Positions 43 through 30,773 of a stretch of 31,025 nucleotides of DNA are shown piece after piece. Origin of the DNA: an uncultured Gammaproteobacteria bacterium (lineage in GTDB: Bacteria > Patescibacteriota > Patescibacteriia > Patescibacteriales > GWC2-42-12). Position numbers and translations under genes: made by a program. Positions within the stretch are counted from its first letter, which is position 1; each line of letters starts with the position of its first letter. The notes under the pieces were generated by a model that saw only the letters and a program-made list of their open reading frames with translations, was not told where the DNA came from and ran no database searches. The DNA lies in assembly GCA_964537265.1 (NCBI GenBank), contig CAZHZE010000009.1:1-31025 (forward strand). The letters are read 5' to 3'.

Positions 43-146
43 AAATTTATTTAATATTAGCTAAAAAAATATATTTAGTCTAATTTTAGCCAAATTAGCT
101 AATATTAGCCAAAAATATTAAAATATCTCCTAAACTTTACTTACTG

Positions 147-218
147 TGTCCCCGAGAGGAATCGAACCTCTATCTAGGGCTTAGGAGTCCCTTGTTCTAT
201 CCATTAAACTACGGGGAC
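147..218 (-). tRNA. tRNA-Arg(CCT), 72 nt, no encoded CCA
   Basis: The reverse complement reads GTCCCCG TA GTTT AATGGATA GAAC A AGGGA CTCCTAA GCCCT AGAT AGAGG TTCGATT CCTCT CGGGGAC A. This folds as a cloverleaf with anticodon CCT and a canonical TTCGATT T-loop. Confidence 0.8.
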
Positions 219-3637: not shown

Positions 3638-4984
3638 ATGAATAATGAGCAACTTTGGCAAGCCGTTTTAGGTGAAATTGAATTAAGTTTATCTAAAGCC
3701 AACTTCACCACCTGGTTTAAAAACACTTTTATTTCTTCTATTGAAAACAGCCGGGCAATTATTTGTGTGCCAAACACTTTTACTAAGGCTTGGTTAGAAA
3801 AAAAATACCACAAAGAAATATGTGGCGCCTTTAAAAATGTTGGCTCAGCAGAAATTAAAGAAATTATTTATAAAGTTGAGGCTAAAAAAGAATTGGTTTC
3901 GGATAATTTAATAAAAAAATTTAAAAACGAAAGTGTTGTTGAAATAAAACCGAAAACTCTTAACCGCTTTGGTCTTAATAATCGATATATTTTTGAAAAT
4001 TTTATTGTGGGAAAAAATAATGAATTAGCCCATGCAGCCTGCCAGGCGGTTTCAGCCAACCCAGGCCATGCTTATAATCCTCTTTTTATTTATGGCGGGG
4101 TTGGGTTGGGAAAAACTCATCTCTTGCAAGCTATCGGCCACGAATTATCTAAAAAAACCGATAAAATTTTATATGTTTCTTCTGAAAAATTTACAAACGA
4201 CTATGTCCACGCAGTTAGAAATGGCCAAGCCAAAGAATTTAAAGATCATTATCGAAATGTTGATTTATTGCTAATTGATGATATTCATTTCATGGGCGGC
4301 AAAGATGGAACTCAAGAAGAATTCTTCCATACTTTTAACGAATTACACCAAACTAATAAACAAATAGTAATTTCTTCTGACCGACCGCCTAAAGCTATAC
4401 CGGCCTTAGAAAAAAGATTGCTTTCCCGCTTTGAATGGGGGATGATAGCCGATATAGGCTCTCCGGATTTAGAAACTAGAATAGCCATTTTAGAAACTAA
4501 ATGTCGAGAAAAAAATTATAAATTAGAAAGAGAAATTTTGGCTTACATTGCTAATAATATCACTAATAATATCCGCGAATTAGAAGGAGCTTTAAATCGC
4601 TTAATCGCTTATTACGAATTTAATAATTCTTTGCCTTCCTTAGACTCTACTAAAAGTATTTTAGCTGGCATAATCTCTAATTTTCAATCTAAATCAACTA
4701 CGCCTAAAACCATTATTGAAGCGGCGGCCAGGTTTTTTGATATTAATGTTAAAGATTTGATCGGCCAAAGCAGAAAAAAAGAATTAGTCGTGCCCAGACA
4801 AATTGTTATGTATTTAATGCGCAAAGAAATTAACGCCTCTTATCCATCTATCGGCCAAGAGTTGGGCGGACGAGACCATACTACAGCTATGCACGCATTT
4901 AATAAAATTGAACGCGAATCACAAGAGGATGAAAAAATAAAACAACACATAGATTCTATAAAACAAGTTCTTTATAGTAGTTAA
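3638..4984 (+). CDS. dnaA: chromosomal replication initiator protein DnaA
   Basis: The 448-aa product has the Walker A motif GGVGLGKTHL, Walker B LLIDDIHF and a sensor region. The C-terminal DNA-binding domain includes VPRQIVMYLMRK...HTTAMHA. Divergent from rpmH and followed by dnaN. Confidence 0.95.
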   Translation: MNNEQLWQAVLGEIELSLSKANFTTWFKNTFISSIENSRAIICVPNTFTKAWLEKKYHKEICGAFKNVGSAEIKEIIYKVEAKKELVSDNLIKKFKNESVVEIKPKTLNRFGLNNRYIFENFIVGKNNELAHAACQAVSANPGHAYNPLFIYGGVGLGKTHLLQAIGHELSKKTDKILYVSSEKFTNDYVHAVRNGQAKEFKDHYRNVDLLLIDDIHFMGGKDGTQEEFFHTFNELHQTNKQIVISSDRPPKAIPALEKRLLSRFEWGMIADIGSPDLETRIAILETKCREKNYKLEREILAYIANNITNNIRELEGALNRLIAYYEFNNSLPSLDSTKSILAGIISNFQSKSTTPKTIIEAAARFFDINVKDLIGQSRKKELVVPRQIVMYLMRKEINASYPSIGQELGGRDHTTAMHAFNKIERESQEDEKIKQHIDSIKQVLYSS

Positions 4985-5243
4985 TAAACCGGTGGAAAAA
5001 AACAAATTAACTGTTAATAATTTATTAAATTTTTTAAAACCAAAAAAATTAACCCCAACCAATTAACACATTAAACAAAAAATCCCACACCCAACACACA
5101 ACCACCAACCACAAAACAACCAACAAACACAACACATAACAAAAAATATTAACTTATTAACTCACCTTATTATTACTATTAGTTTTTAAAATATATAAAT
5201 AATTAAAAATAATTAACAACTCTTAATTTGTTAATAAAAAAAT

Positions 5244-6395
5244 ATGGCCAACCAAAATTCTAATGGATTAAAAATATTTAGTTTGCAAGAAAATTTAAAA
5301 CAAGGCTTAGCGCTGGTTAGTCATATTTCTGGTAAAAATATTAATTTACCAATATTAAATAATGTTTTAATAAAAGCAGAAGATGGAAAAATTAAATTAA
5401 TAAGCACAAATTTAGAGGTTGGGATAATAAGTTCTGTTCGCGGAAAAATTGAAAAAGAAGGTGTTTTTACGGTTAATGCTAAAATTATATCTGATTGTAT
5501 AAGCCTTTTACCAAATAAAAAAATAGGGTTAGAACAAAGCGGGACAGATTTTTTAGTAGATTGTGAAAACTATCAAGTTAAAGTAAGGGGTCAATCAGCC
5601 GAGGAATTTCCTTTAATCCCAGAGGTGGATAAAAAAAATTATTTTAGCGCGCAAGCCGAGGAAATAAAACAGGCTATCTCTCAGGTTATTTTTGCCACCG
5701 CCACTAGTGAAACAAGGTTAGAGTTGTCTGGTGTTTTATTTGTTTTTACTGCAAATTATTTAACTATGGTAGCAACAGATAGTTATCGTTTGGCAGAAAA
5801 AAAAGTAAAAATAAAATCTAATAGCGAAGAAGATAAAAAAATTATTGTACCGGCAAAAACTTTACAGGAGTTATTGAGAATTTTATCTTTAGGTTTAGGA
5901 GATGAAGTAGAAGATAAAAATCAAGAAATAAAATTTTATATTTCAGAAAATCAAATTTTATTTACTTATGGTTCGACCGAATTGGTTTCGCGATTAATTG
6001 AAGGTCAATACCCCGATTATCAACAAATTATTCCTACTAATAGTAAAACAAAAGTTTCTATTAATCAGCAGGAGTTGACTAGAGCTGTAAAAATGGCTTC
6101 TTTATTTTCTAAAACCGGAGTGAATGATGTTAATTTAGATTTTCCTGCCGGTAAAAACCAAGTGGTGATTTCTTCTGTTTCCGGACAAACCGGCGAAAAT
6201 ATAACTAATTTAGAAGCTAAAGTTTCCGGCGATGACAATGGTATGGTTATTAATTATCGTTATCTTTTAGAAGGTTTAAATAATATGGAAAAAGAAATGA
6301 TAAAAATTGATATAATAGATAGTAACACTCCTTGCTTAATTAGACCCGAACAAGATGAAAGTTATTTATATATTATCATGCCTATAAAACAATAA
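5244..6395 (+). CDS. dnaN: DNA polymerase III beta sliding clamp
   Basis: The 383-aa product lies immediately downstream of dnaA and has the three-domain clamp architecture (N-terminal LKQGLALVSHISGKNINLPILNNVLIKA; C-terminal NYRYLLEGL). Confidence 0.9.
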   Translation: MANQNSNGLKIFSLQENLKQGLALVSHISGKNINLPILNNVLIKAEDGKIKLISTNLEVGIISSVRGKIEKEGVFTVNAKIISDCISLLPNKKIGLEQSGTDFLVDCENYQVKVRGQSAEEFPLIPEVDKKNYFSAQAEEIKQAISQVIFATATSETRLELSGVLFVFTANYLTMVATDSYRLAEKKVKIKSNSEEDKKIIVPAKTLQELLRILSLGLGDEVEDKNQEIKFYISENQILFTYGSTELVSRLIEGQYPDYQQIIPTNSKTKVSINQQELTRAVKMASLFSKTGVNDVNLDFPAGKNQVVISSVSGQTGENITNLEAKVSGDDNGMVINYRYLLEGLNNMEKEMIKIDIIDSNTPCLIRPEQDESYLYIIMPIKQ

Positions 6396-6474
6396 ATTTA
6401 AAAGTTTATAAAAAATACCTCGCTTATTAAAGCGGGGTATTTTTATTGAAAAAGTTTAAAAGCAATTTTAATTA

Positions 6475-9432
6475 TTATTGAGAAGTTGCTGGAGTGGTGG
6501 TTGCGTTTATTGTAGATAAGTTATTAACATTAATAGAAATTTCTTTACTAGTATCTATCTGCCCATGCCAACCATGAGCTTCGGCGTAAATTTTATAAGA
6601 ACCGGCATTTAAAATTTTTGTTATTTGCGCCTCAGCTATTTTATCTATTATTTGGCTTTGGGCTATCTGTTGCGTGTTGCCACTTGAATCTTTTAAATAG
6701 AAGATAACCGCGGCTGTTTGTTCTGGGTTGGTCACTTCAGCTTTTATTGTTAAAGGAAAATCATATTTTAAAATATTTGTCTCGTTGGTTGGTTGAATTA
6801 TTGTCGCGCTTATTTTGCTGGTTTTCGGTCGGCTGTTTCTTATTAAATTAAATTCTATTTTTTGTTCAGAACAATTATCAACATCATCACAAGCTCGCGC
6901 AGTTAATGTGTGGTAACCATTAATTAAAGAGCTAACCGATTTATTAAGATTAAAGGGGGCGGTGGTTACGGTACTAAATAAATAACCATCAATATAATAT
7001 TCAACCCTATTAACTCCGCGCGTAGCCGTAGTGCTAACTTTTACATCTAGTGTTTGTCCGGGCAAAGTTTGTTTATTATTTGGATAGTCTATAGAAATTA
7101 CCGGGTTTAATTCTGGGCGATGAACATTATCATATTCAGTCGGCGGAGCAGCATTGATAATGCCTTGTTTTTTCGCCCATTCTTGGACGGCATTTTCCCA
7201 TAAATCAAATTGGGGGTCGCTTTTGGGGTTAGAAGGAATTTCACCACGCGGATCATCTTTGTTGACATAATATAAAATACAATGAGTTTGTTTAAATTGT
7301 TTTTCTATAATGGCGCTGGCCGGAGTAAATTCATTGGCTAAGAGTCCGGAAAATTTATCAATTTTAACCGTAGTCTCAGGATCGGTTACGCCGTCTAATA
7401 TAGGCTTACCGGTTGGAGCGTTTTCCGGGGCGTTAAAATATTCAATTGGAGTATTACCTAAAACTTTCGCCATATAATCATGCCAAATTGGTGCAGCTAC
7501 CACCGAACCATCTGCGCCGCGTTTCATTTCTTTATTATTGTTGTTGCCAACCCAAACCCCAGTAACTATGGATGGAGTATAGCCAATCGTCCAAGCGTCT
7601 CGATAATCATTGGTTGTTCCGGTTTTAGCCGCAACCGGGCGCGATCCTAAAGTTAACATATTGTTTGCGCCAAAAACATAAGCTCTGGCATTGTTATCTG
7701 ATAAAATACTATTGGTTAAGCGGGCAATTTTTGGTTCTAAAATTTTTTCATCTTGATTTTTAAATTCTTCTAAAATATTTCCGTCTTTATCTTCAATTTT
7801 TAAAATAACAGAAATTGGATGTTTAATACCTTCACGGGCAAAGGCGCTAAAAGCATTAGTATGCTCTAAGAGCTTTACTTCGCCGCCGCCTAAAACTAAA
7901 GACAAACCAAACCTGTCCCTATCGTTTAGCGTTGTATAGCCTAAACTTTGTGCCAGATTTAAAACATTGTTAATGCCGGTTAAATAAATAGCTTTAACAG
8001 CCGGTATATTTAAAGAACCGGCTAAAGCTTGCCTAATGGTTACTGGGCCATGTTCTTTTAAATCGTAATTATGAGGCTCATAAGGGTTAGCCGGATCAGT
8101 AGAAAATTTTGTTACCACATCGTAAAGCACGGTGTCTGGCGTATAGCCTTTTACAAAAGAAGCTGTATAAACAATTGGTTTAAAAGATGAGCCTGGTTGG
8201 CGTGGTTGCAAAGCTACGTTTACTTGTCCGTCAATATCATCATTAAAATAATCACGTGAGCCAACCATAGCCAATATTTGCCCTGTTTTTGGGTCAATTG
8301 AAACTAGGGCTGCGTTAGTGGCTTGATAATTTTTTTCATTATTAGTAGCTTTTTCATTAATTACTTCCTCAGCAATTTTTTGCTTATATAAATCTAAAGT
8401 AGTATAAATTTTTAACCCGCCTTGCTCGATCATTTTTTCTCCATATTTATCGGCTAACAATTCTTTTACATACATAATAAAATGAGGCGCTATCATATTG
8501 TCAGATCTTTGTTTAAAAACTAAAGTTGTCTTTTTAGCTTCAGCGGCTTGATCTTTTGTTATATAGCCATATTTAGCCATTAAATCTAAAATATATTGTT
8601 GTCTGGCGATTAACAAATCTTTATGCGAACCAAAAGGAGAATAGCGCGTTGGCGCTTGCGGTATGGCGGCTAAAATCGCCGCTTCAGCCAAATTTATATC
8701 ACGTACGTTTTTGCCAAAATAAAGCTGGCTAGCAGCCTCAACGCCATAAGCGGTCGAGCCGTAAGGTATTTCATTAAAATACATTTGCAAAATTTCATCT
8801 TTGGAAAATTTCTTTTCTATGCGATAAGCTAAAATAATTTCTTTAGCTTTTCTAATAAAAGATTTTTCATTGGTTAAAATGGCGTTTTTAACAAATTGTT
8901 GAGTTAAGGTTGAGCCGCCGGCTTTTTTACCAAATAAAATATCAGTAACAATGGTTCTAAAAATTGCCCAAAGGCTAAAACCTTTGTGTTTATAAAAATC
9001 TTTATCTTCAATAGAAATAGTGGCATTTTTTACATTTTCCGGTATATCTTTTAAATTAACTAAGGTCCTTTTTTGTTCGCCATAGATATCATAAAGAATA
9101 GTTTGTCCGCTACGATCATAAATTTTTGTGCTTTGGGCGATTTGTCGTTCAGTCAAACGATTAGGGTCTGGCAAACCATGGGATAACCATAAAAATCCAG
9201 CATAACCAAAAACAAACAAAGCTAAAAGGCCTATAAATATATTTTTAGGCGTTAAAAATTTGGATATATATTTATTAATATATTTATTTTTGCCGTTTGT
9301 ATATTGTTTAACGATTGTCCGGCTGCTAAAATTTGAAGAAGTTCTTTTAAATTTATTAAAAAAACTATTTTTTTTAGACCGGCGCCAACCTTGAGGAGAT
9401 TTTATATGATTTGAAGAATATGAAGCAGACAT
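6475..9432 (-). CDS. class A penicillin-binding protein (PBP1A-like transglycosylase/transpeptidase) with a long C-terminal extension
   Basis: The 985-aa product has an N-terminal TM, GT51 motifs (EDKDFYKHKGF, GGSTLTQQ), and transpeptidase motifs (SSFKP, SLN, KTGTT). About 250 C-terminal residues look beta-rich. Confidence 0.9.
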   Translation of the reverse strand: MSASYSSNHIKSPQGWRRSKKNSFFNKFKRTSSNFSSRTIVKQYTNGKNKYINKYISKFLTPKNIFIGLLALFVFGYAGFLWLSHGLPDPNRLTERQIAQSTKIYDRSGQTILYDIYGEQKRTLVNLKDIPENVKNATISIEDKDFYKHKGFSLWAIFRTIVTDILFGKKAGGSTLTQQFVKNAILTNEKSFIRKAKEIILAYRIEKKFSKDEILQMYFNEIPYGSTAYGVEAASQLYFGKNVRDINLAEAAILAAIPQAPTRYSPFGSHKDLLIARQQYILDLMAKYGYITKDQAAEAKKTTLVFKQRSDNMIAPHFIMYVKELLADKYGEKMIEQGGLKIYTTLDLYKQKIAEEVINEKATNNEKNYQATNAALVSIDPKTGQILAMVGSRDYFNDDIDGQVNVALQPRQPGSSFKPIVYTASFVKGYTPDTVLYDVVTKFSTDPANPYEPHNYDLKEHGPVTIRQALAGSLNIPAVKAIYLTGINNVLNLAQSLGYTTLNDRDRFGLSLVLGGGEVKLLEHTNAFSAFAREGIKHPISVILKIEDKDGNILEEFKNQDEKILEPKIARLTNSILSDNNARAYVFGANNMLTLGSRPVAAKTGTTNDYRDAWTIGYTPSIVTGVWVGNNNNKEMKRGADGSVVAAPIWHDYMAKVLGNTPIEYFNAPENAPTGKPILDGVTDPETTVKIDKFSGLLANEFTPASAIIEKQFKQTHCILYYVNKDDPRGEIPSNPKSDPQFDLWENAVQEWAKKQGIINAAPPTEYDNVHRPELNPVISIDYPNNKQTLPGQTLDVKVSTTATRGVNRVEYYIDGYLFSTVTTAPFNLNKSVSSLINGYHTLTARACDDVDNCSEQKIEFNLIRNSRPKTSKISATIIQPTNETNILKYDFPLTIKAEVTNPEQTAAVIFYLKDSSGNTQQIAQSQIIDKIAEAQITKILNAGSYKIYAEAHGWHGQIDTSKEISINVNNLSTINATTTPATSQ

Positions 9433-9545
9433 AAAGATTGTAAATATAAAAAATTATACCAGTTTTTAACTTATCTAGCAATTTTAGTAATACAATTTTA
9501 AATATATAAAAATTTATTATTAAACTATTGGCTGGCTTTTAATTT

Positions 9546-9651: not shown

Positions 9652-10059
9652 ATGAAAAAATCATTATTTAAAAAAGCAGTATTATTGGCCATGTCCGTTT
9701 TTGTTTTAATGCCTGTTTTAACTTTTGCTTTGCCGGTTGCAGCCGAAGATTTAAATCCTTGGGGCACTGACACTTTAAAAGAGAATGTTCAAAGCGAAAC
9801 AGGTTTAGGAGACAGAGATCCTCGCGATATCGCTGCTTCAGTGATTCGTGTTATTTTAGGATTTTTAGGCATTGTGGCCGTAATTATAATTTTATTAGGT
9901 GGTTTTAAATGGATGACTGCCGGCGGCAACGAAGATAAAGTTGGTGAAGCTAAAAAATTAATCATGGCCGGTGTTATCGGCTTGGTAATTATTGTGGCGT
10001 CTTTCGCTATTGCTACTTTTGTTTTAGATTCATTAATTAGTGCTACCAGCCAAAGTTAA
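9652..10059 (+). CDS. small secreted/membrane pilin-like protein (T4SS-pilin/TrbC-VirB2-like family expanded in CPR), paralog 1
   Basis: The 135-aa product has a signal peptide and a variable N-terminal segment. Its conserved C-terminal block is ILGFLGIVAVIIILLGGFKWMTAGGNEDKVGEAKKLIMAGVIGLVIIVASFAIATFV, a two-TM hairpin motif shared by nine ORFs in this window. Confidence 0.8.
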   Translation: MKKSLFKKAVLLAMSVFVLMPVLTFALPVAAEDLNPWGTDTLKENVQSETGLGDRDPRDIAASVIRVILGFLGIVAVIIILLGGFKWMTAGGNEDKVGEAKKLIMAGVIGLVIIVASFAIATFVLDSLISATSQS

Positions 10060-10063
10060 TATT

Positions 10064-10081
10064 CTTAATACCGGTATTAAG
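10064..10081 (+). terminator. perfect palindrome cttaataccggtattaag immediately after the paralog 1 stop
   Basis: A 9-bp stem hairpin starts 5 nt after the stop codon. There is no strong T-run, so terminator function is uncertain. Confidence 0.4.
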
Positions 10082-10195
10082 AGCCTGTTTGGAAAGTTCA
10101 TTTCTACTGCAATTTTAAAATTTTGGCATAATTTTAAAAAAATTCTATCCCAAATTTTAAAATTTCGTTGCGAAAGCAACTTTTCAAACAGGCTC
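10081..10195. repeat. structured intergenic element, copy A: 18-nt inverted repeat gagcctgtttggaaagtt / aacttttcaaacaggctc enclosing a 79-nt core
   Basis: The arms are complementary except for one G-T pair. The core begins catttctactgcaattttaaaatttt and ends aaatttcgttgcgaaagc. These core ends are shared with copy B at 29295..29453. Confidence 0.6.
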
Positions 10196-10288
10196 TTGAA
10201 AAAGTGGTGCCCGATTTTTCGGGACCACTGCCATAACCAGGAGTTTAAATTCATGTTTATGGCAGTGAGTTTATAAAAAATAAATAAT

Positions 10289-10726
10289 ATGTTTATCGCA
10301 AAATATCAAAAATTTATTATTTTTAGTTTGTTAATTTTCTTTTCTTTGTTTATGATAGCTCAAGTTGTTTCGGCCGCAATTTACGACCCGGCTGATCCGG
10401 TTGGAACTTCTGGTTTACAAGACACAGCCACTAAAGCGAAGCTGCCTACTAATGATGTTGATCCGTCTGCTTTAATTGGCAGAGTGGTTGGTTACGCATT
10501 ATCTTTTTTGGGTGTGGCTTTTTTTATTCTAATTATTTACGCCGGTTATTTATGGATGTTTTCTATGGGCAATGAACAAACCGTAACAAAAGCCAAAGAA
10601 ATAATTATTGCTGCTGTAATTGGTTTAATAATAGTTTTAATGGCTTATGCTATTACTTCTTACATTGGAGAAGTTTTACAACAAAAATCTTCTAATAGCA
10701 ACACGCAGCAACCAGCCACACCGTAA
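10289..10726 (+). CDS. pilin-like protein, paralog 2
   Basis: The 145-aa product has a signal peptide and the conserved block LSFLGVAFFILIIYAGYLWMFSMGNEQTVTKAKEIIIAAVIGLIIVLMAYAIT. Confidence 0.8.
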   Translation: MFIAKYQKFIIFSLLIFFSLFMIAQVVSAAIYDPADPVGTSGLQDTATKAKLPTNDVDPSALIGRVVGYALSFLGVAFFILIIYAGYLWMFSMGNEQTVTKAKEIIIAAVIGLIIVLMAYAITSYIGEVLQQKSSNSNTQQPATP

Positions 10727-10733
10727 AAAATTT

Positions 10734-11111
10734 ATGAAAAGAATTTTACATTTTTTATCGATTTTTATTGTATTGAGTATTTTTATATTTAATATAAATT
10801 TAATTAATTCTTCAGCCGCATCTTTTAGTGATGGTTTAAAAACAACTGGCGGAAAGATTGGTTATCCTGAAACTGGTCTAGATACATTTTTACCAGCTAC
10901 TATTGGTCAAATCATATCTTTGTCATTAGGATTTTTAGGCGTAGCTTTTTTAGGTATAATGATTTACGCCGGCTATTTGTGGATGATGGCGCGCGGCAAC
11001 GAGCAGGATGTAGAAAAAGCCAAAAATATTATAATTTATGCGGTTATTGGCTTGGTGGTGGTTTTATCCGCCTATGCCATAACCTTAATAATAGGAACTT
11101 TATGGACATAA
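10734..11111 (+). CDS. pilin-like protein, paralog 3
   Basis: The start was reassigned to the ATG at 10734 (MKRILHFL...), since the tracked ORF at 10647 overlaps paralog 2. The conserved block is LGFLGVAFLGIMIYAGYLWMMARGNEQDVEKAKNIIIYAVIGLVVVLSAYAIT. Confidence 0.75.
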   Translation: MKRILHFLSIFIVLSIFIFNINLINSSAASFSDGLKTTGGKIGYPETGLDTFLPATIGQIISLSLGFLGVAFLGIMIYAGYLWMMARGNEQDVEKAKNIIIYAVIGLVVVLSAYAITLIIGTLWT

Positions 11112-11548
11112 AAATAAATTTAAAAAGTAAAAAATTTTTATTATTATTTTTGATTTTATTATTTGGTTTTTTTAGTTTTTCTTTTTGTTTGGCTGATACT
11201 TCGAGCCAAAATTTAAATGATGCTTTTGGCAAACCATTGGAGGACGCGGCAAAAGGAGCTGGTTATGATCAAAGTCAAAAAGATATAACCTCGATAATTT
11301 CTATCATAATTAATTTGGCCTTAAGTTTTTTAGGCGTGATTTTTTTAGGTTTAATGATTTATGGCGGCTATTATTGGATGACGGCTAGGGGTGAAGAAGA
11401 AAAAGTTACTAAAGCTAAAGATACAATTACCAGGGCTATTGTCGGGCTAGTTATTGTTGTTGCCGCTTATGCTATTAGCGTTTTTGTTGTAAATAGCATA
11501 GAATCTAAGACGTTAAAAAATGAACAGCAAAAAGCGCAAATTAAATAA
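11102..11548 (+). CDS. pilin-like protein, paralog 4
   Basis: The start was reassigned to the ATG at 11102 (MDIKINLKSKKF..., a signal/TM segment), which overlaps the paralog 3 stop by 10 nt. The conserved block is LSFLGVIFLGLMIYGGYYWMTARGEEEKVTKAKDTITRAIVGLVIVVAAYAIS. Confidence 0.7.
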   Translation: MDIKINLKSKKFLLLFLILLFGFFSFSFCLADTSSQNLNDAFGKPLEDAAKGAGYDQSQKDITSIISIIINLALSFLGVIFLGLMIYGGYYWMTARGEEEKVTKAKDTITRAIVGLVIVVAAYAISVFVVNSIESKTLKNEQQKAQIK

Positions 11549-11573
11549 CGTAGATAATAAATAAAATAAAAAA

Positions 11574-11960
11574 ATGAATAAATATTTTAAAAAAGTTATA
11601 ATTTTAAGCTGTTTAATAATTTTTTTAGTCGTACCTTTTTTTGCTAACGCGGCTTTACCGTCAGAAAAATTAAAGGTTGTGGGAGAAGGCTCATACACCA
11701 CGGCCGATGAGAAAACTTTAGCAAAAATTATTGGAACTGTTATTCAAGCATTTTTAGGAGTTTTAGGCGTTGTCTTTTTAGCTTTAATGGTTTATGCAGG
11801 ATATTTATGGATGACCGCTAGAGGCGAAGAAGAAAAAGTTACTAAAGCTAAAGATACAATAATGAGAGCGGTTATCGGCTTAATTATAGTAATTGGCTCT
11901 TATGCTATTACTTATTTTGTAGTTGAAAATTTAGTAATTAGCAGTTCAGTTTTTAAATAA
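11574..11960 (+). CDS. pilin-like protein, paralog 5
   Basis: The 128-aa product has the conserved block FLGVLGVVFLALMVYAGYLWMTARGEEEKVTKAKDTIMRAVIGLIIVIGSYAIT. It shares a 35-nt identical DNA tract with paralog 4. Confidence 0.8.
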   Translation: MNKYFKKVIILSCLIIFLVVPFFANAALPSEKLKVVGEGSYTTADEKTLAKIIGTVIQAFLGVLGVVFLALMVYAGYLWMTARGEEEKVTKAKDTIMRAVIGLIIVIGSYAITYFVVENLVISSSVFK

Positions 11961-11965
11961 AAAAT

Positions 11966-12403
11966 ATGCTAAAAAAATATTTTAAAAAAATCACGTTATT
12001 GGTATTTTTATTTTTATTGCTTTTTAATTTTTATTTAGTTCAAACAATTAATGCTAGTACGCAAATTGATATGCAGCTGCAATTGCAAACTGCCGCTAAA
12101 CCATCTTGGGGAGAGCAAGTACCAATTGGAAATAGCAGTTTGGGCGGTATTGTCGCTAAAATAATTCAAGCCTTTTTAGGTTTATTAGGAATTATATTTT
12201 TAGTTTTAATAATTTATGCCGGTTTTCTTTGGATGACGGCGCAGGGTGATGAAGAAAAAGTTAAAAAAGCCAAAGAAATTTTACAACGAGCTGTTATTGG
12301 TTTAGTTATAATTGTTTCGGCTTATGCCATAACTTATTTTGTGTTTAGTAATTTACCTGGTGGAACGGGAAGTAGCAGCGGGGGCGGTTCAATGCCTTAT
12401 TAA
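11966..12403 (+). CDS. pilin-like protein, paralog 6, with a Gly/Ser-rich C-terminal tail
   Basis: The 145-aa product has the conserved block FLGLLGIIFLVLIIYAGFLWMTAQGDEEKVKKAKEILQRAVIGLVIIVSAYAIT, followed by the tail PGGTGSSSGGGSMPY. Confidence 0.8.
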   Translation: MLKKYFKKITLLVFLFLLLFNFYLVQTINASTQIDMQLQLQTAAKPSWGEQVPIGNSSLGGIVAKIIQAFLGLLGIIFLVLIIYAGFLWMTAQGDEEKVKKAKEILQRAVIGLVIIVSAYAITYFVFSNLPGGTGSSSGGGSMPY

Positions 12404-13929: not shown

Positions 13930-14001
13930 GGCCAGGTAGCCAAGTGGTAAGGCGAGAGTCTGCAAAACTCTTATTCATGGGTTCGATTCCCATTCTGGCC
14001 T
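13930..14001 (+). tRNA. tRNA-Cys(GCA), 72 nt, U73 discriminator, no encoded CCA
   Basis: The sequence reads GGCCAGG TA GCC AAGTGGTAA GGC G AGAGT CTGCAAA ACTCT TATTC ATGGG TTCGATT CCCAT TCTGGCC T. The anticodon is GCA, and U73 is the Cys identity element. Confidence 0.85.
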
Positions 14002-14004
14002 CAT

Positions 14005-16810: not shown

Positions 16811-16811
16811 G

Positions 16812-16883
16812 TGGACAGTACAGGACTTGAACCTGTAACCCCTGCGATGTAAACGCAGTGCTCTACCATTGAGCTAACTGTCC
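16812..16883 (-). tRNA. tRNA-Val(TAC)
   Basis: The reverse complement reads GGACAGT TA GCTC AATGGTA GAGC A CTGCG TTTACAT CGCAG GGGTT ACAGG TTCAAGT CCTGT ACTGTCC A. Confidence 0.85.
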
Positions 16884-16891
16884 GCGACTAG

Positions 16892-16975
16892 TGCCGAGGA
16901 CAGGACTTGAACCTGCAAGGAGTTGCCTCCACCAGCACCTCAAGCTGGCGCGTATACCAATTCCGCCACCTCGGC
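16892..16975 (-). tRNA. tRNA-Leu(GAG), long variable arm
   Basis: The reverse complement reads GCCGAGG TG GCGG AATTGGTATA CGCG CCAGC TTGAGGT GCTGG, then a variable arm TGGAGGCAACTCC, then TTGCAGG TTCAAGT CCTGTCC TCGGC A. The discriminator is A73. Confidence 0.85.
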
Positions 16976-20172: not shown

Positions 20173-21621
20173 TTAAAATATTTTAAAATCATCTTCACTG
20201 ATGCTTTTAGATAAATATAGTCCGATACAATAAATTAAGGCTGCTAATAAAACCGTATATATCAAGTTAATTTTAGGCGCTAAAAAATAAACGCCAATAC
20301 CCATAATCAAAGAAATAATAAGAGATTTAAAAAATATTGTAAAATTAGGCCTAAAATTAGCATATTTAAATATAATATAAAAAGAAAAAAGCATGATAGC
20401 TAATTCACTATAAACAGTCACCCAAGCGGCTCCATAATATGAAAAACGAGGGATAAAAATTAAATAGCCAACCAATGAAGTTATGGCGGTAAAAACATAA
20501 GCCGCAATAACATTTTTTTGTTTATCTAAGGCTATAACTGCATGTGCGAACAAACAGCCGATAAAAATAAAACCTATGGCCAAAATTAATATTTTTAAAA
20601 TTTCTCCTGATTGGGCAAAATTTTCTCCAGCTATTAAAATCATCAGCGGCTTAGCTGTAAAAATTGCTCCAATAATCAAGGGCATGGCTAACATTATCAT
20701 GGCATCCAAAGATTTTTGTAGAACCAGATTAAATTTAAATAAATTTTTATTATTCCATTCCATGGTTAATATCGGCAGGATCAGGCCAGCAAACATAAAA
20801 GGTATAGCAGTTAAAACATCGATTATTTTATAAGTAGCGCCGTAAAGCCCGACATCGGTTTGGGTTTTTAATAAAGATAAAATAAAGATATCCGCCCTTA
20901 GATAAATTAAATTAAAAAAAATGGTTAAGCCTAACGGCCAGGATTTTTTAATAATTTCTCGCCAGATATTTAAATCAATTTCCCAGCTGATTTTAATAAA
21001 ACGGCGAGAAAATAAATAATGCATAATAAAGCTGACAAAACTTGAGGCGACAGTGGCTATCATAATGCTTAATAAACCAGTATTAAAATAAACTGTAGCC
21101 ATAACCCCAATTAATAGAACTAAACGGCTAACTATTTCGGCCATGGCCACAACCGTCATGGTTAAATTTTTTTGGAAAAAGCCGACTAGAATTTGATTTA
21201 AAGCCATGAAAAAATAAGATAAGACAGTAACCGTTACGCCAATTTTAATAATTGGCTCATAAGGAAAAAATAAAACGATCAAAGGAGCTAGGCCTAAAAA
21301 AAAGATTGCGGAGATTAAACGTAAAGTAAAAAGATTATTTAATAATGAAGTTTGATTATTGCCCGGCTGGCTAATCATTTGCGTAGTTATTAGGGTTAGC
21401 CCAAAATCAGCTATAATGCCAAAAAACGATAAAAAAGTGATAATGGTAGTATATTGGCCAAAGCCAACCTCTTTTAAATATCTGGCCATAATCGCTATAG
21501 TGGCTAGACCTAAGACGGTTCCGACGGCTTTACCGATTATTTGAACAATGGTATTATATGCTACCATAGAAGAAAGTTTTTTTTCCACCCCGTTAGAAAT
21601 TTTATTTATTTTTTGCTCCAT
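20173..21621 (-). CDS. polysaccharide/oligosaccharide flippase (Wzx-like, MOP superfamily)
   Basis: The 482-aa product is a polytopic membrane protein with about 12-14 TM segments and the size and topology of Wzx/MOP exporters. Confidence 0.65.
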   Translation of the reverse strand: MEQKINKISNGVEKKLSSMVAYNTIVQIIGKAVGTVLGLATIAIMARYLKEVGFGQYTTIITFLSFFGIIADFGLTLITTQMISQPGNNQTSLLNNLFTLRLISAIFFLGLAPLIVLFFPYEPIIKIGVTVTVLSYFFMALNQILVGFFQKNLTMTVVAMAEIVSRLVLLIGVMATVYFNTGLLSIMIATVASSFVSFIMHYLFSRRFIKISWEIDLNIWREIIKKSWPLGLTIFFNLIYLRADIFILSLLKTQTDVGLYGATYKIIDVLTAIPFMFAGLILPILTMEWNNKNLFKFNLVLQKSLDAMIMLAMPLIIGAIFTAKPLMILIAGENFAQSGEILKILILAIGFIFIGCLFAHAVIALDKQKNVIAAYVFTAITSLVGYLIFIPRFSYYGAAWVTVYSELAIMLFSFYIIFKYANFRPNFTIFFKSLIISLIMGIGVYFLAPKINLIYTVLLAALIYCIGLYLSKSISEDDFKIF

Positions 21622-21895
21622 AGTAATATTTCAAACGATTTTTTAAATATTTTTTGCCCATGCCGCTTTTTAAATACTTTTCTCTAAAAAAAGCATCGTA
21701 TTTATTATATGATGATTCAAAATATATAAGTTTGAATGGTCTCCTGTTTTTAGTCGCGAACACTTTACCATCGTTATGTTCCTTTGTTCTTTTAGTTATA
21801 TTGTTTGTACAGCCAGTATACCATAGTTTGTCTTTTAAACTTTCTAAAACATAAACGTACCACAATATTTTTTGTAAATTTCTAACGGGGTCCAT
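21602..21895 (-). CDS. GIY-YIG nuclease-domain protein
   Basis: The 97-aa product has WYVYVLES...KLWYTGCTNNITKRTKEHN, which matches the GIY-YIG motif pair followed by a conserved Arg/Glu. It overlaps the flippase start by 20 nt. Confidence 0.7.
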   Translation of the reverse strand: MDPVRNLQKILWYVYVLESLKDKLWYTGCTNNITKRTKEHNDGKVFATKNRRPFKLIYFESSYNKYDAFFREKYLKSGMGKKYLKNRLKYYYGAKNK

Positions 21896-21958: not shown

Positions 21959-22402
21959 ATGTTTATGACTAAAAAGATTTTTAACTATGTTCTAAGCATT
22001 GTTTTTTTGTCCATGTGTCTAACCTTAATTCCGGCAAGTTTTGATTTTCAGCCGGTAAACCAAACTAAAGCTGCTGGTTGGTGGGATACGGTAAATAATA
22101 ACGAATTCAAACAAGTTGGTTCTGTTTATGGCAATAACACAACCAAGGATATAAGAATGGTAGTGGTAGATATTATAAAAAAAATTCTAGGTCTTTTAGG
22201 AGTTATAGCTTTAGTGATTATTTTATATGCCGGTTTTAAATGGATGACATCGGCTGGCAACGAAGAAACTATTACTTCCGCCAAAAAGACTTTAATCGCC
22301 GGCTTGATTGGTTTAGCTATTATTTTATTCTCTTATGCTATAGCCACTTTTGTTATAAAATATTTATCTGCCGCCAGTACTGGCCAGCAAGTAATTTGGT
22401 AA
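21959..22402 (+). CDS. pilin-like protein, paralog 7
   Basis: The 147-aa product has a signal peptide and the conserved block ILGLLGVIALVIILYAGFKWMTSAGNEETITSAKKTLIAGLIGLAIILFSYAIATFV. Confidence 0.8.
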   Translation: MFMTKKIFNYVLSIVFLSMCLTLIPASFDFQPVNQTKAAGWWDTVNNNEFKQVGSVYGNNTTKDIRMVVVDIIKKILGLLGVIALVIILYAGFKWMTSAGNEETITSAKKTLIAGLIGLAIILFSYAIATFVIKYLSAASTGQQVIW

Positions 22403-22438
22403 TAATGCTAATATATAAATTAATTTATAAATAAAATT

Positions 22439-22864
22439 ATGCAACAAAACATTTTTCAAAAAATCGTTTTAGCGACAATGATTTTTGCAGCTCTCACTTT
22501 GATTATGCTGCCAGTTTCTAAAACTATGGCCCTAGAAGCAGATGATTATTGGGGTGGCACTGAACAACGCCAGTATGTTGACCAAAACTCTGGTTTAGCC
22601 GGAGGGGAAACAGCCAGGGATCCTCGCTTAGTGGTGGTAGACGTAATAAAAACTATCTTAGGTTTTTTAGGTGTTATAGCTTTAGTGATTATTTTATATG
22701 CCGGTTTTAGATGGATGACTGCCGGCGGAAATGAAGAAAACGTTTCAACGGCTAAAAAAATATTAATTTCAGCTTTAATCGGTTTAGTTATTATTTTATC
22801 TTCCTACGCTTTAGCTACTTTTGTTTTAGATCAAATGGTAAAAGCTATTTCAGGAAATAGTTAA
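22439..22864 (+). CDS. pilin-like protein, paralog 8
   Basis: The 141-aa product has the block ILGFLGVIALVIILYAGFRWMTAGGNEENVSTAKKILISALIGLVIILSSYALATFV. A 47-nt tract is identical in 46 of 47 positions to paralog 7. Its N-terminal RDPR motif is shared with paralog 1. Confidence 0.8.
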   Translation: MQQNIFQKIVLATMIFAALTLIMLPVSKTMALEADDYWGGTEQRQYVDQNSGLAGGETARDPRLVVVDVIKTILGFLGVIALVIILYAGFRWMTAGGNEENVSTAKKILISALIGLVIILSSYALATFVLDQMVKAISGNS

Positions 22865-25294: not shown

Positions 25295-25726
25295 TTATGA
25301 AGTCATCGCCGTTAAGACAAGTTTTACTAGGGCATATGAGCTAAAGATAATAAATAGGCCAACTGCTGCCCAGATTAAAATATTTTTTCCTTTAGTTACT
25401 TGTTCTTGGTTGCCGGCTGATAACATCCAAATAATACCGCCGTAGATAAACATTACTAAGGCCAATGAACCGATAACTCCCATAATAGCATTAATAACAT
25501 TGCCTAGAAGAGTTGGTATATCGGTTTTACCTTGACCCAGGGGGTTGTCGAGGGGGACGGCGCCGGAGGTTCCTGGGGCAATAGGTTCACAACCATCCTG
25601 ACACTTAGTGGTACCAGGAATAAATGAAGTGTCGCTACCCTCGGCGCACCAGCAATCAGCAGCAAATGAATAATTAGCTAATACGAATGAAGAAAGTATA
25701 ATTGTAAAAAATATTATTTTTTTCAT
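25295..25726 (-). CDS. pilin-like protein, paralog 9, with a cysteine-rich N-terminal module
   Basis: The 143-aa product has a signal peptide, then CWCAEGSDTSFIPGTTKCQDGCEP with four Cys. The conserved block is IMGVIGSLALVMFIYGGIIWMLSAGNQEQVTKGKNILIWAAVGLFIIFSSYALV. Confidence 0.8.
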   Translation of the reverse strand: MKKIIFFTIILSSFVLANYSFAADCWCAEGSDTSFIPGTTKCQDGCEPIAPGTSGAVPLDNPLGQGKTDIPTLLGNVINAIMGVIGSLALVMFIYGGIIWMLSAGNQEQVTKGKNILIWAAVGLFIIFSSYALVKLVLTAMTS

Positions 25727-29962: not shown

Positions 29963-30037
29963 TGGAGCGGGTAGCGGGAATCGAACCCGCCTCTCGACCT
30001 TGGAAGGGTCGCATAAAAGCCACTATACTATACCCGC
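29963..30037 (-). tRNA. tRNA-Gly(TCC) with encoded CCA
   Basis: The reverse complement reads GCGGGTA TA GTAT AGTGGC.. CGACC CTTCCAA GGTCG AGAG GCGGG TTCGATT CCCGC TACCCGC T CCA. The discriminator is U73. Confidence 0.8.
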
Positions 30038-30044
30038 CTTTGCT

Positions 30045-30195
30045 TTTATTATCGCAAAAGCTACGGCGGGCAAGCCCGCTTATTATGGCGGCTTGCACTA
30101 CGTAGCCTTGGCGAAGTAGTGTCGGGCTGCTCACGAATTGAAGGGGCGGAAGCCCCACGCCGACACGCTGATTTCGGCAAGCCCAACAACCTAAC
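30045..30195. ncRNA. GC-rich structured RNA candidate between tRNA-Gly and tRNA-Pro; identity and strand unresolved (SRP-RNA-like long hairpin is one hypothesis)
   Basis: The GC-rich core of about 140 nt contrasts sharply with the AT-rich flanks. It contains nested helices: gctacg...cgtagc, gcgggc-aa-gcccgc, gtgtcgg...ccgacac, and ggggc-GGAA-gcccc. The minus-strand reading contains GAGCAGCC, reminiscent of the SRP helix 8 motif, but the fit to SRP is imperfect. Tracked ORFs at 29940..30197 and 30061..30264 overlap tRNAs and are rejected. Confidence 0.35.
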
Positions 30196-30232
30196 AAAAA
30201 ATTCTAAAGTCGCAAGGACTTTATAATTTTTG

Positions 30233-30303
30233 TCGGGCTGCTGGGAATTGAACCCAGTCAACATGCTCCCAAAGCATGCGTACTACCGGTATACGACAGC
30301 CCG
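30233..30303 (-). tRNA. tRNA-Pro(TGG)
   Basis: The reverse complement reads CGGGCTG TC GTAT ACCGGTA GTAC G CATGC TTTGGGA GCATG TTGA CTGGG TTCAATT CCCAG CAGCCCG A. The C1:G72 pair and A73 are typical of bacterial tRNA-Pro. Confidence 0.8.
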
Positions 30304-30325
30304 GATTCAATTACTAATTGAAATG

Positions 30326-30397
30326 TGCCGGGGGTGAGAATCGGACTCACGACACAATGATTTTCAGTCATTTGCTCTACCACTGAGCTACCCCGGC
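30326..30397 (-). tRNA. tRNA-Phe(GAA)
   Basis: The reverse complement reads GCCGGGG TA GCTC AGTGGTA GAGC A AATGA CTGAAAA TCATT GTGTC GTGAG TCCGATT CTCAC CCCCGGC A. Confidence 0.85.
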
Positions 30398-30491
30398 AAA
30401 TTAGTCATAAAGTTAAAAGTTGAAAGTTAGAAAGTAGAAAATTTAAATCAAAACTTTTTAACTTTATACTTTTAACTTTTAACTATCTTTG

Positions 30492-30564
30492 TTGCGGGGG
30501 CCGGATTTGAACCGGCGACCTCCAGGTTATGGGCCTGGCGAGCTGCCAACTGCTCTACCCCGCG
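30492..30564 (-). tRNA. initiator tRNA-fMet(CAT)
   Basis: The reverse complement reads CGCGGGG TA GAGC AGTTGGCA GCTC G CCAGG CCCATAA CCTGG AGGTC GCCGG TTCAAAT CCGGC CCCCGCA A. It has the C1xA72 mismatch and A11:U24. Its acceptor and T arms are nearly identical to E. coli tRNAfMet as I recall it. Position 33 in the anticodon loop is C rather than U. Confidence 0.8.
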
Positions 30565-30699
30565 TCGCTTTGCGAAATTTTTAATTTCCAATTTTTAATT
30601 TTTAAATAAATTATAATTTTCAATGTTTGAAATATTGAAAATTAAAGCATTAAAAATTGTTTAAAAATTTAAAATTATAAAATTTAAAAATTATCCGAG

Positions 30700-30773
30700 T
30701 GGGCAACGGGGGAATCGAACCTCCGACCTCCACATTATCAGTGTGGCGCTCTAACCATCTGAGCTAGTTGCCC
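30700..30773 (-). tRNA. tRNA-Ile(GAT)
   Basis: The reverse complement reads GGGCAAC TA GCTC AGATGGTTA GAGC G CCACA CTGATAA TGTGG AGGTC GGAGG TTCGATT CCCCC GTTGCCC A. This is the typical rRNA-spacer tRNA. Confidence 0.85.

Follow-up and report, generated by a model that had tools for sequence, protein, structure and literature searches.

Tandem arrays of genes encoding VirB2-like pilins are widespread in Patescibacteria, and in the one genetically tractable member of the phylum the type IV secretion system (T4SS) is essential for growth on the host (passages of PMC12857230 and PMC12102498). As described in parts of the survey by Quinonero-Coronel et al. (2025, PMC12102498), in which the families PF18895 and PF04956 were used, 441 such arrays of 2-11 tandem genes occur in 383 assemblies and are most abundant in Microgenomatia and Saccharimonadia, with T4SS genes close to dnaA. 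Identity within those arrays is low, with a mean of 25% and a maximum of 54%, and pilin variability has been suggested to aid host adaptation. The passages of that paper drawn on here describe no recombination or concerted-evolution analysis. In Southlakia epibionticum, the T4SS locus, which is essential, includes a cluster of six VirB2-like pilins (Wang et al. 2023, as cited in PMC12857230). Outside the phylum, the Trw T4SS of Bartonella has tandem copies of trwL, encoding a VirB2 homologue, and of trwJ, for which recombination or concerted evolution along with diversification is described (passages of PMC2883598, citing Nystedt et al. 2008, Mol Biol Evol 25:287). Here, we consider a stretch of 31,025 nucleotides (nt), contig CAZHZE010000009.1, referred to as the window, which contains nine pilin genes, p1 to p9 (Table 1). 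An earlier note on this DNA pointed to long tracts of identity between the neighbours p4 and p5 and between the neighbours p7 and p8, and took them as signs of ongoing gene conversion.

The explanation that we favour, and that we regard as probable for the two tracts taken together, is as follows. The p7/p8 tract would stem from conversion, and the p4/p5 tract would be a conserved, codon-biased motif. More generally, the comparison with related loci shows that the arrays are modular. That is, the variable N-termini are stable orthologues, and the membrane/assembly core is sporadically homogenised between neighbours.

Two shared tracts and the within-genome statistics

The string GAAGAAGAAAAAGTTACTAAAGCTAAAGATACAAT, 35 nt long, is present exactly twice, once in p4 and once in p5, as the earlier note had it; shuffling gave a match in 0 of 100 trials. 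It encodes EEEKVTKAKDT(I), which forms the end of the inter-helix turn and the charged start of helix 2 (E85-I96 in p5). The peptide said to be common to both proteins is also there, with a length of 18 amino acids (aa), WMTARGEEEKVTKAKDTI, rather than 19; the residue before W is Y in p4 and L in p5. The second tract, 47 nt with a single difference, is found in p7 at the position first given for it, but its partner in p8 starts at 22673, an offset of 471 nt, and not at 22712. The latter placement (22712-22758) mismatches at 31 of 47 positions. The exact part of the p7/p8 tract is a run of 37 nt, with 22202-22238 equal to 22673-22709.

The window is a metagenome contig, and repeats of k-mer length can mislead assemblers, so an artefact, through chimeric joins or the collapse of paralogs, has to be weighed. 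We hold it to be extremely unlikely. Both copies of the p4/p5 tract, together with their diverged flanks, are reproduced unchanged in L001 (ERZ2648158), which was assembled independently from another sample and represents a 99% identical strain, and in other species comparable tracts are found in many independent assemblies. Mis-joins are possible, but assemblers do not create identity inside genes that are 70% identical. In exact-protein look-ups, p4 retrieved only L001, a 1.4-kb contig with no differences in the tract, and p5 had no match.

Elsewhere the paralogs have diverged at synonymous sites, as the earlier note stated. Outside the runs, the counts of same codons equal those expected at saturation, with 21 of 39 against 19.7 expected for p4/p5 and 25 of 50 against 24.0 expected for p7/p8. 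Nor do the C-terminal blocks approach the 95% identity above which nothing unusual would have been seen in such runs, the nucleotide identities being 70% for p4/p5 and 75% for p7/p8. Because the synonymous sites outside both tracts are saturated, the tracts exceed a codon-usage null. When codons were resampled with the amino acids fixed, the probability of a run of at least 35 nt in p4/p5 was 0.004, and that of a run of at least 37 nt in p7/p8 was 0.0007. The family-wise probability of a maximum of at least 35 nt was 0.005, and two such runs arose in 0 of 3000 simulations. A GENECONV-like permutation of all polymorphic sites gave P < 0.0002 for each of the two pairs, in a test that also counts amino-acid motifs common to the paralogs by descent; limited to silent codons, the permutation gave P = 0.066 for p4/p5 and P = 0.023 for p7/p8, uncorrected for 36 pairs. 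The product of the same-codon probabilities is 0.002 for the p4/p5 run and 8.5e-5 for the p7/p8 run.

These values bear on a simpler account, namely that no recombination took place and that both tracts arose by chance from amino-acid conservation and AT-biased codons. The 31-kb window is AT-rich, with 32% GC, and its codon families are strongly biased (AAA 92%, GAA 84%, TTT 88%); both silent-site P values fail correction for 36 pairs. Seven of the 11 codons in the p4/p5 run are two-fold codons (GAA, AAA, GAT) with a bias of 82-92%, and three of the remaining four are the commonest for their amino acid. The p7/p8 run, in contrast, crosses a hydrophobic helix and uses codons from three- to six-fold families, among them several minor ones (GTG, ATA, GCC, GGT). 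Such codons, with the small product that they yield, argue against chance, as does the simulated frequency of two runs of at least 35 nt, which is below 1 in 3000. Moreover, the p7/p8 incongruence between N-terminus and C-terminal module described below goes beyond what codon bias can produce. As an account of both tracts, chance is therefore very unlikely. It is refuted for p7/p8 and is viable for p4/p5 only, where it merges with the explanation by a conserved motif. Within the genome alone, the evidence is stronger for p7/p8 than for p4/p5, and it is decisive for neither.

Concerted evolution of p7 and p8

The comparison of p7 and p8 covers four species, represented by the window and by L089, L091, and L092. 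In all four, the pair has the same neighbours, with a gene for polysaccharide synthesis (minus strand) before p7 and a glycoside hydrolase gene after p8. The N-terminal halves are orthologous, with the pattern MFMTK...AAGWW in p7 and M.QNIF...DDYWGG..QRQYV..ARDPR in p8, and in neighbour-joining (NJ) trees of the N-terminus the split between p7 and p8 orthologues has 100% bootstrap support. The C-terminal module behaves differently. Here, p7 and p8 of one species pair with each other, with bootstrap values of 82% for the window and 82%, 87%, and 99% for the other pairs. The ratios of orthologous to concerted to control site patterns are 46:2:1, 31:3:6, 34:7:4, 44:1:5, 48:5:5, and 49:2:1 in the N-terminus and 2:13:4, 5:14:1, 1:21:1, 2:18:3, 1:20:0, and 2:20:0 in the module. 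That is, the module sorts by species and the N-terminus by orthologue, which is the pattern of concerted evolution, with paralogs closer than orthologues in part of the gene.

Within L089, L091, and L092, the modules of p7 and p8 have an identity of 0.87-0.91, against 0.76-0.81 between orthologues, and the exact runs between the two genes measure 37 nt in the window and 83, 34, and 109 nt in the other three species. The hairpin residues and codons that p7 and p8 have in common are specific to each species: LGFLGIIATVIILFAGFKWMTSGGNEENVTSAKKML in L089, ...NVAGAKKMLIAGIIGLVIILSSYAL in L092, ...AAGNEENITSAKNMLIAGIIG in L091, and GVIALVIILYAGF in the window. Of seven shared-derived sites of p7 and p8 that are private to the window, four lie inside the 37-nt tract (Fisher P = 0.015). 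A point on the other side is the identity of the window's own p7 and p8 modules, 0.77, which is not above that of the orthologues, so that conversion in this genome would be either old or confined to helix 1.

The idea in the earlier note that exact tracts imply recombination is thus borne out for p7/p8, through the incongruence between N-terminus and C-terminal module in four species, and gives way at p4/p5 to a conserved motif, as discussed in the next section. Judged from these alignments, gene conversion between p7 and p8 is well supported and is established at the level of the clade; in this genome it is best taken as a patch in helix 1 that is either short or old. The p7/p8 module evolves in concert in all the species examined, with the 37/47-nt stretch as its clearest remnant here.

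Two observations concern the neighbourhood and the relatives of these genes. A gene for a stand-alone GIY-YIG nuclease of 97 aa lies directly upstream of p7 (21602-21895, minus strand) and is kept in species B (L089, 2077-2361). It is absent from the p7 locus of L091 and of L092. L085 has another GIY-YIG gene, on the downstream side of its p1-p6 array (9188-9433). Such nucleases might start the recombination, although L092, with none at the p7 locus, has the longest tract. Further, p1 and p8, which are 12.8 kb apart, belong to one subfamily (DPR...KWMTAGGNE). They have identical codons at 36 of 56 positions, against 26.5 expected at saturation, and exact runs of 17-18 nt, an excess that may reflect older exchange or younger duplication.

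The charged loop motif of p4 and p5

For p4 and p5, arrays of the p1-p6 type that are fully or largely syntenic with that of the window were taken from five other species. Two of these (L082 and L085) were found via the nearest p4 homologues, and three (L112, L120, and L108) via a scan with a degenerate pattern. The closest homologues of p4 among 5.8 billion proteins are 61-62% identical to it. The motif ARGEEEKVTKAK(D/E)T is present in p4 and p5 of all five species, with exact p4/p5 runs at the equivalent place of 23, 23, 21, 20, and 11 nt. In metagenome contigs scanned for EEEKVTKAK(D/E)T in any codons, there are 41 unique instances, including the window and L082 copies, and among these the synonymous positions vary freely (4 Val, 4 Thr, and 3 Ala codons). 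The 29-nt core GAAGAAGAAAAAGTTACTAAAGCTAAAGA recurs in at least five separate contigs, namely L111, L112, L125, L131, and the window, where both genes carry it.

Trees and site patterns place the window genes with their orthologues. In NJ trees of the 66-codon C-terminal module, sequences group by orthologue, with all p4 together in 89% of bootstraps and all p6 together in 81%, and the pairing of window p4 with window p5 appears in only 5-8%, the loop alone included. The same test recovers a positive control, as the p5+p6 conversion in L112 scores 100%. In the loop region, window p4 has an identity of 0.90 to p4 of L085 and of 0.88 each to window p5, p4 of L082, and p4 of L108. No window-private shared-derived site lies inside the tract. 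The paralogs are thus not closer than the orthologues in the module or in its loop, and the recent conversion proposed for p4/p5 in the earlier note is not supported, given the equally close orthologues, the low bootstraps, and the lack of a private derived site. From these comparisons, the p4/p5 tract is most likely not the product of recent conversion. We suggest instead that the charged loop motif EEEKVTKAKDT would be ancient in the subfamily and that p4 and p5 would both retain the modal encoding carried by other species, because the motif is old and its codons are strongly biased.

Several results weigh against this conclusion. The tract does beat the codon-usage null in this genome, by both the codon product and the simulation given above. 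An absence of differences over 33 nt (0/33) occurs in 0.4% of between-lineage pairs and is the lowest value among 16 within-lineage pairs once duplicate copies are collapsed. Across species, concerted site patterns of p4/p5 outnumber control patterns by about 2-3:1, an excess that conversion at a low level or shared compositional drift could produce. Finally, apart from the contig of the 99% identical strain, L001, the nearest genomes in the searched collections have about 79% nucleotide identity to this one in housekeeping genes, none falling at 85-98%, and the ages of events are therefore poorly resolved. Over p1-p6 as a whole, four-taxon counts give 113 concerted against 74 control sites, with 5:1 and 4:1 for p4/p5; the excess is weak, and shared compositional drift could explain it as well.

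A recent, small homogenising event between p4 and p5 in this lineage is accordingly worth weighing in full, and we judge it possible but unlikely. It would account for 0/33 differences where other within-lineage pairs have 2-5 and between-lineage pairs a mean of 4.8, for the resampling result, and for a tract bounded on both sides by synonymous differences in genes whose synonymous sites are saturated outside the run; conversion is, moreover, demonstrable elsewhere in the family. Set against it is the fact that the modal encoding found in other lineages accounts for 29 of the 35 nt. Since sister species already have runs of 20-23 nt at this place, only about three differences were left to erase. 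The trees and the loop identities do not favour it, the tract holds no shared-derived state private to the window, and the silent-site permutation gives P = 0.066 even when uncorrected. From what is generally known of minimal homology lengths, a 35-nt patch within flanks of about 65% identity would also be a poor substrate for RecA-type recombination. One candidate trace of copying, the GAT ACA of window p4, where p4 of L082 and L085 has GAG ACy, was dropped, as p4 of L112, L120, and L108 also encodes Asp at this position and GAT is thus not specific to p5.

In the three closest species, the synonymous sites of p4, p5, and p6 hardly vary within the core of the tract, as might be expected if a signal at the nucleotide level were conserved there, be it an RNA structure, a site for regulation, or the target of a recombinase. 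We consider a signal of this kind highly improbable. Synonymous variation over the 41 motif instances is free, the pilin region has no Rfam match, the repeats are all direct, and no recombinase was found in the list of open reading frames (ORFs) or by a Pfam scan that covered ten of the non-pilin ORFs. The fraction of same codons between the window and L082 or L085 is 0.61-0.68 in housekeeping genes, so a count of 9-10 of 11 is nothing unusual in a stretch rich in Glu and Lys. The retention of an ancient, codon-biased motif thus remains our preferred account of p4/p5. It also carries a warning for AT-rich genomes, where 35 nt of exact identity in a conserved, Glu/Lys-rich motif do not by themselves point to recent recombination.

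Modular arrays, their setting, and known systems

In all the arrays that were fetched, exact runs of at least 30 nt are confined to neighbours: 13 of 76 adjacent pairs have one, against 0 of 161 pairs of genes that are not adjacent. Some of these belong to recent tandem duplicates (the p1 copies of L003 and L005). Others join genes with unrelated N-termini, namely genes 3/4 of L021 (98 nt), genes 6/7 of L002 (61 nt), and p5/p6 of L112 (83 nt). In L112 (6458-7297), p5 carries p6-type residues (TAQG...DTLQRAVIG) along its 83-nt exact run with p6, and the 100% bootstrap for p5+p6 in the loop region makes this a clear lineage-specific conversion. Among the strains of species A and B (L083, L084, L086, L087, L088, and L090), there are 0-8 differing sites, none of them in the C-terminal module; ongoing conversion, as named in the earlier note, is not shown.

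Array copy number among the relatives is 6, 7, 8, or 9 genes. The arrays of 8-9 genes (L002, L003, L099, and L106) have a (p4,p5)-like unit in duplicate, compared with six genes in the window, L082, L085, L112, and L120. In the larger arrays, the first p4-like gene (4a) has a p3-like loop, with species-specific states in common with p3; exact runs between genes 3 and 4 measure 37 nt in L002 and 98 nt in L021. Amino-acid identity by segment suggests that window p4 is a mosaic relative to the 8-gene arrays, as its N-terminal part and transmembrane segment 1 (TM1) are nearest 4a and its loop and TM2 nearest the second p4-like gene, 4b. An origin of window p4 as a 4a/4b hybrid by unequal crossover is weakened by the distant arrays L019 and L068, in which a p4-like gene has an EEE-type loop. 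A conversion of the 4a loop by p3 in L002, L003, L005, and L021 is no less likely.

At the strain level, p3 of L001 differs from p3 of the window by five substitutions within 23 nt (10856-10878) of the variable N-terminal part, with K to N, E to K, and synonymous changes. A donor was searched for in the window, and none was found; the cluster could reflect strain-level recombination or diversifying selection. This p3 also has frameshifting indels, and its coverage is low.

The following mechanism is proposed. The hairpin modules of adjacent copies would be similar enough for occasional short-patch, non-reciprocal homologous recombination, that is, gene conversion. Between direct repeats about 430-470 nt apart, the exchange would take the form of short patches in the most similar parts, and an unequal exchange now and then would change the number of copies in the array. 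The variable N-termini, which are about 40-45% identical, would be beyond the reach of exchange and so remain orthologous. The simplest agent would be RecA-type, homology-limited recombination. The exchange homogenises the conserved part and does not diversify the variable part. The suggestion that such homology might allow cassette-like shuffling of N-terminal modules is not supported, with N-termini that are orthologous across four to six species and copies that are all full-length with signal peptides. Likewise, the hallmarks of programmed variation of the pilE/pilS or shufflon type were looked for, and the locus has no silent or truncated cassettes and no inverted arrangement of its repeats.

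It is tempting to propose that recurrent conversion between neighbours keeps the helix-loop-helix core uniform as a common assembly interface, letting several paralogs with different exposed N-terminal segments co-polymerise into a mixed filament, but we think this doubtful. Keeping the assembly core uniform might carry a selective benefit. If the proposal is true, episymbionts could vary their surface and host contact in modular fashion without breaking pilus assembly, and the species-specific residues of p7/p8 (NVAGAKKM, NVTSAKKM, and NITSAKNM) would be co-adapted interface states and not neutral hitch-hikers. The findings bear on the origin of copy-number changes in the arrays and on the plausibility of mixed pili. 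In addition, since the core is homogenised between neighbours, trees of the conserved domain mis-assign the orthology of paralogs.

The contig belongs to a Falkowbacteria-like Patescibacteria genome; relatives found with the class-A penicillin-binding protein (PBP) as an anchor are Falkowbacteria-like and other Patescibacteria metagenome-assembled genomes. The gene order is dnaA, dnaN, PBP1, the tandem array p1-p6 (9652-12403), then the pair p7-p8 (21959-22864), about 9.5 kb further downstream, and then p9. The array thus adjoins replication-origin genes (3638-9432), fitting the published remark that T4SS components of Patescibacteria are often near dnaA. No VirB4, VirB6, VirD4, or other T4SS gene is present in the 31-kb window. 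Orthologues of p1 in L082 and L085 have 81-83% nucleotide identity, and the start of p3 was set by ORF scan and orthologues. The overlap of p3 and p4 is 10 nt in the window (11102-11111) and 16 nt in L082 and L085 (both 6001-6016), which suggests translational coupling in a p2-p6 operon. A promoter and terminator scan yielded nothing informative in this AT-rich DNA.

All nine paralogs pass the Pfam gathering score of PF18895 (T4SS_pilin, 26.6 bits), with scores of 32.9-53.5 bits. None passes that of PF04956 (27.9 bits), the family of canonical TrbC/VirB2 with the F, T, and pKM101 pilins, for which the best score is 22.9 bits (p5); four others score 18-21 bits and the remainder have no match. 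In each protein, the signal peptide is followed by a variable N-terminal segment, then by the conserved helix-loop-helix hairpin, and finally by a short tail. For p5, an AlphaFold2 model with a predicted local distance difference test score (pLDDT) of 81 has helices at 4-24 (the signal peptide), 46-81, and 86-126. The hairpin helices are linked by a four-residue turn and have a pLDDT of 87-96 (means of 10-residue blocks), and the variable segment is poorly ordered. The hydrophobic N-terminus of p5 ends in ANA|A, and the other paralogs have comparable motifs. These features agree with the build of PF18895-type pilins, which are small secreted proteins that start with a signal peptide and in which a short charged turn connects two long hydrophobic helices. 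A profile of 57 sequences matched no PDB chain at E <= 10, and Foldseek against the PDB returned generic helical hairpins only (best E = 0.65), the fold being too simple for a decisive test in either case. As for p9, its longest exact runs with the other paralogs are 7-9 nt, with no long tract in common, and its N-terminal segment has four cysteines (CWCAEGSDTSFIPGTTKCQDGC) that the others lack.

An Rfam scan of the window gave nine matches, all of them tRNAs and none in the pilin region. Five of the nine tRNA genes (Gly, Pro, Phe, Met, and Ile) form a cluster at the 3' end (29963-30773, minus strand); others lie at 16811-16975 (minus), 13930-14002 (plus), and 146-218 (minus). The tRNA-Cys gene at 13930-14002 is an 88% conserved island in the alignments with L082 and L085.

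Table 1. Pilin genes, shared tracts, and flanking genes of the window
Feature	Position (nt)	Strand	Remarks
dnaA	3638-4984		Pfam scan
dnaN	5244-6395		Pfam scan
Class-A PBP (PBP1)	6475-9432	-	
p1, VirB2-like pilin	9652-10059	+	135 aa; PF18895 35.9 bits
p2, pilin	10289-10726	+	145 aa; PF18895 34.3 bits
p3, pilin	10734-11111	+	125 aa from ATG at 10734; PF18895 40.1 bits
p4, pilin	11102-11548	+	148 aa; PF18895 34.9 bits
35-nt tract, p4 copy	11393-11427	+	exact repeat
p5, pilin	11574-11960	+	128 aa; PF18895 39.1 bits
35-nt tract, p5 copy	11826-11860	+	exact repeat, offset 433 nt
p6, pilin	11966-12403	+	145 aa; PF18895 44.8 bits
p7, pilin	21959-22402	+	147 aa; PF18895 35.8 bits; orthologues in L089, L091, L092
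p7 C-terminal module	22160-22345	+	62 codons; helix-loop-helix; concerted with p8
47-nt tract, p7 copy	22202-22248	+	encodes VIALVIILYAGF(K)WMT, C-terminal part of helix 1
p8, pilin	22439-22864	+	141 aa; PF18895 32.9 bits
p8 C-terminal module	22631-22816	+	62 codons; from site patterns and NJ bootstrap
47-nt tract, p8 copy	22673-22719	+	one mismatch, AAA/AGA
p9, pilin	25295-25726	-	highest PF18895 score, 53.5 bits

Two well-known systems of pilin variation are instructive by contrast. In the pilE/pilS system of Neisseria, promoterless, truncated silent cassettes serve as donors for a type IV pilin gene, and conversion diversifies the variable region. The likeness to the window lies in non-reciprocal, short-tract transfer between pilin copies with conserved segments. 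The pilin families are unrelated, however, and the window has complete genes with signal peptides in which the conserved region is homogenised and the variable parts are orthologous. In the R64 shufflon, Rci inverts segments for the PilV C-terminus, a reaction that needs inverted repeats and a site-specific recombinase. There, too, short repeats in pilin-related coding segments allow the reassortment of modules. In the window, by contrast, the repeats are direct (offsets of 433 and 471 nt), the ORFs scanned and listed include no recombinase, and the sole inverted paralog, p9, has no tract longer than 9 nt in common with the others.

The closest parallel is Bartonella trwL. As far as the passages cited in the opening paragraph describe that system, both it and the window have tandem genes for VirB2-type pilins whose copy number varies between species, and both combine recombination or concerted evolution among copies with diversification. 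The differences are as follows. Bartonella is a diderm alphaproteobacterium with a pathogenicity-associated system of mating-pair formation type T (MPF-T), whereas the window comes from monoderm Patescibacteria. Its pilins, unlike TrwL, belong to PF18895 and are encoded beside dnaA/dnaN and not virB4. Homogenisation is limited to the helix-loop-helix module, with strictly orthologous N-termini. Within Patescibacteria, the array is Falkowbacteria-like, compared with the Microgenomatia and Saccharimonadia given as the most array-rich groups in the portions of PMC12102498 used here. Taken with the Bartonella work as described in those passages, the process is already known in kind; what this locus adds is another phylum, another pilin family, and a sharp boundary between the exchanged module and the rest of the gene.

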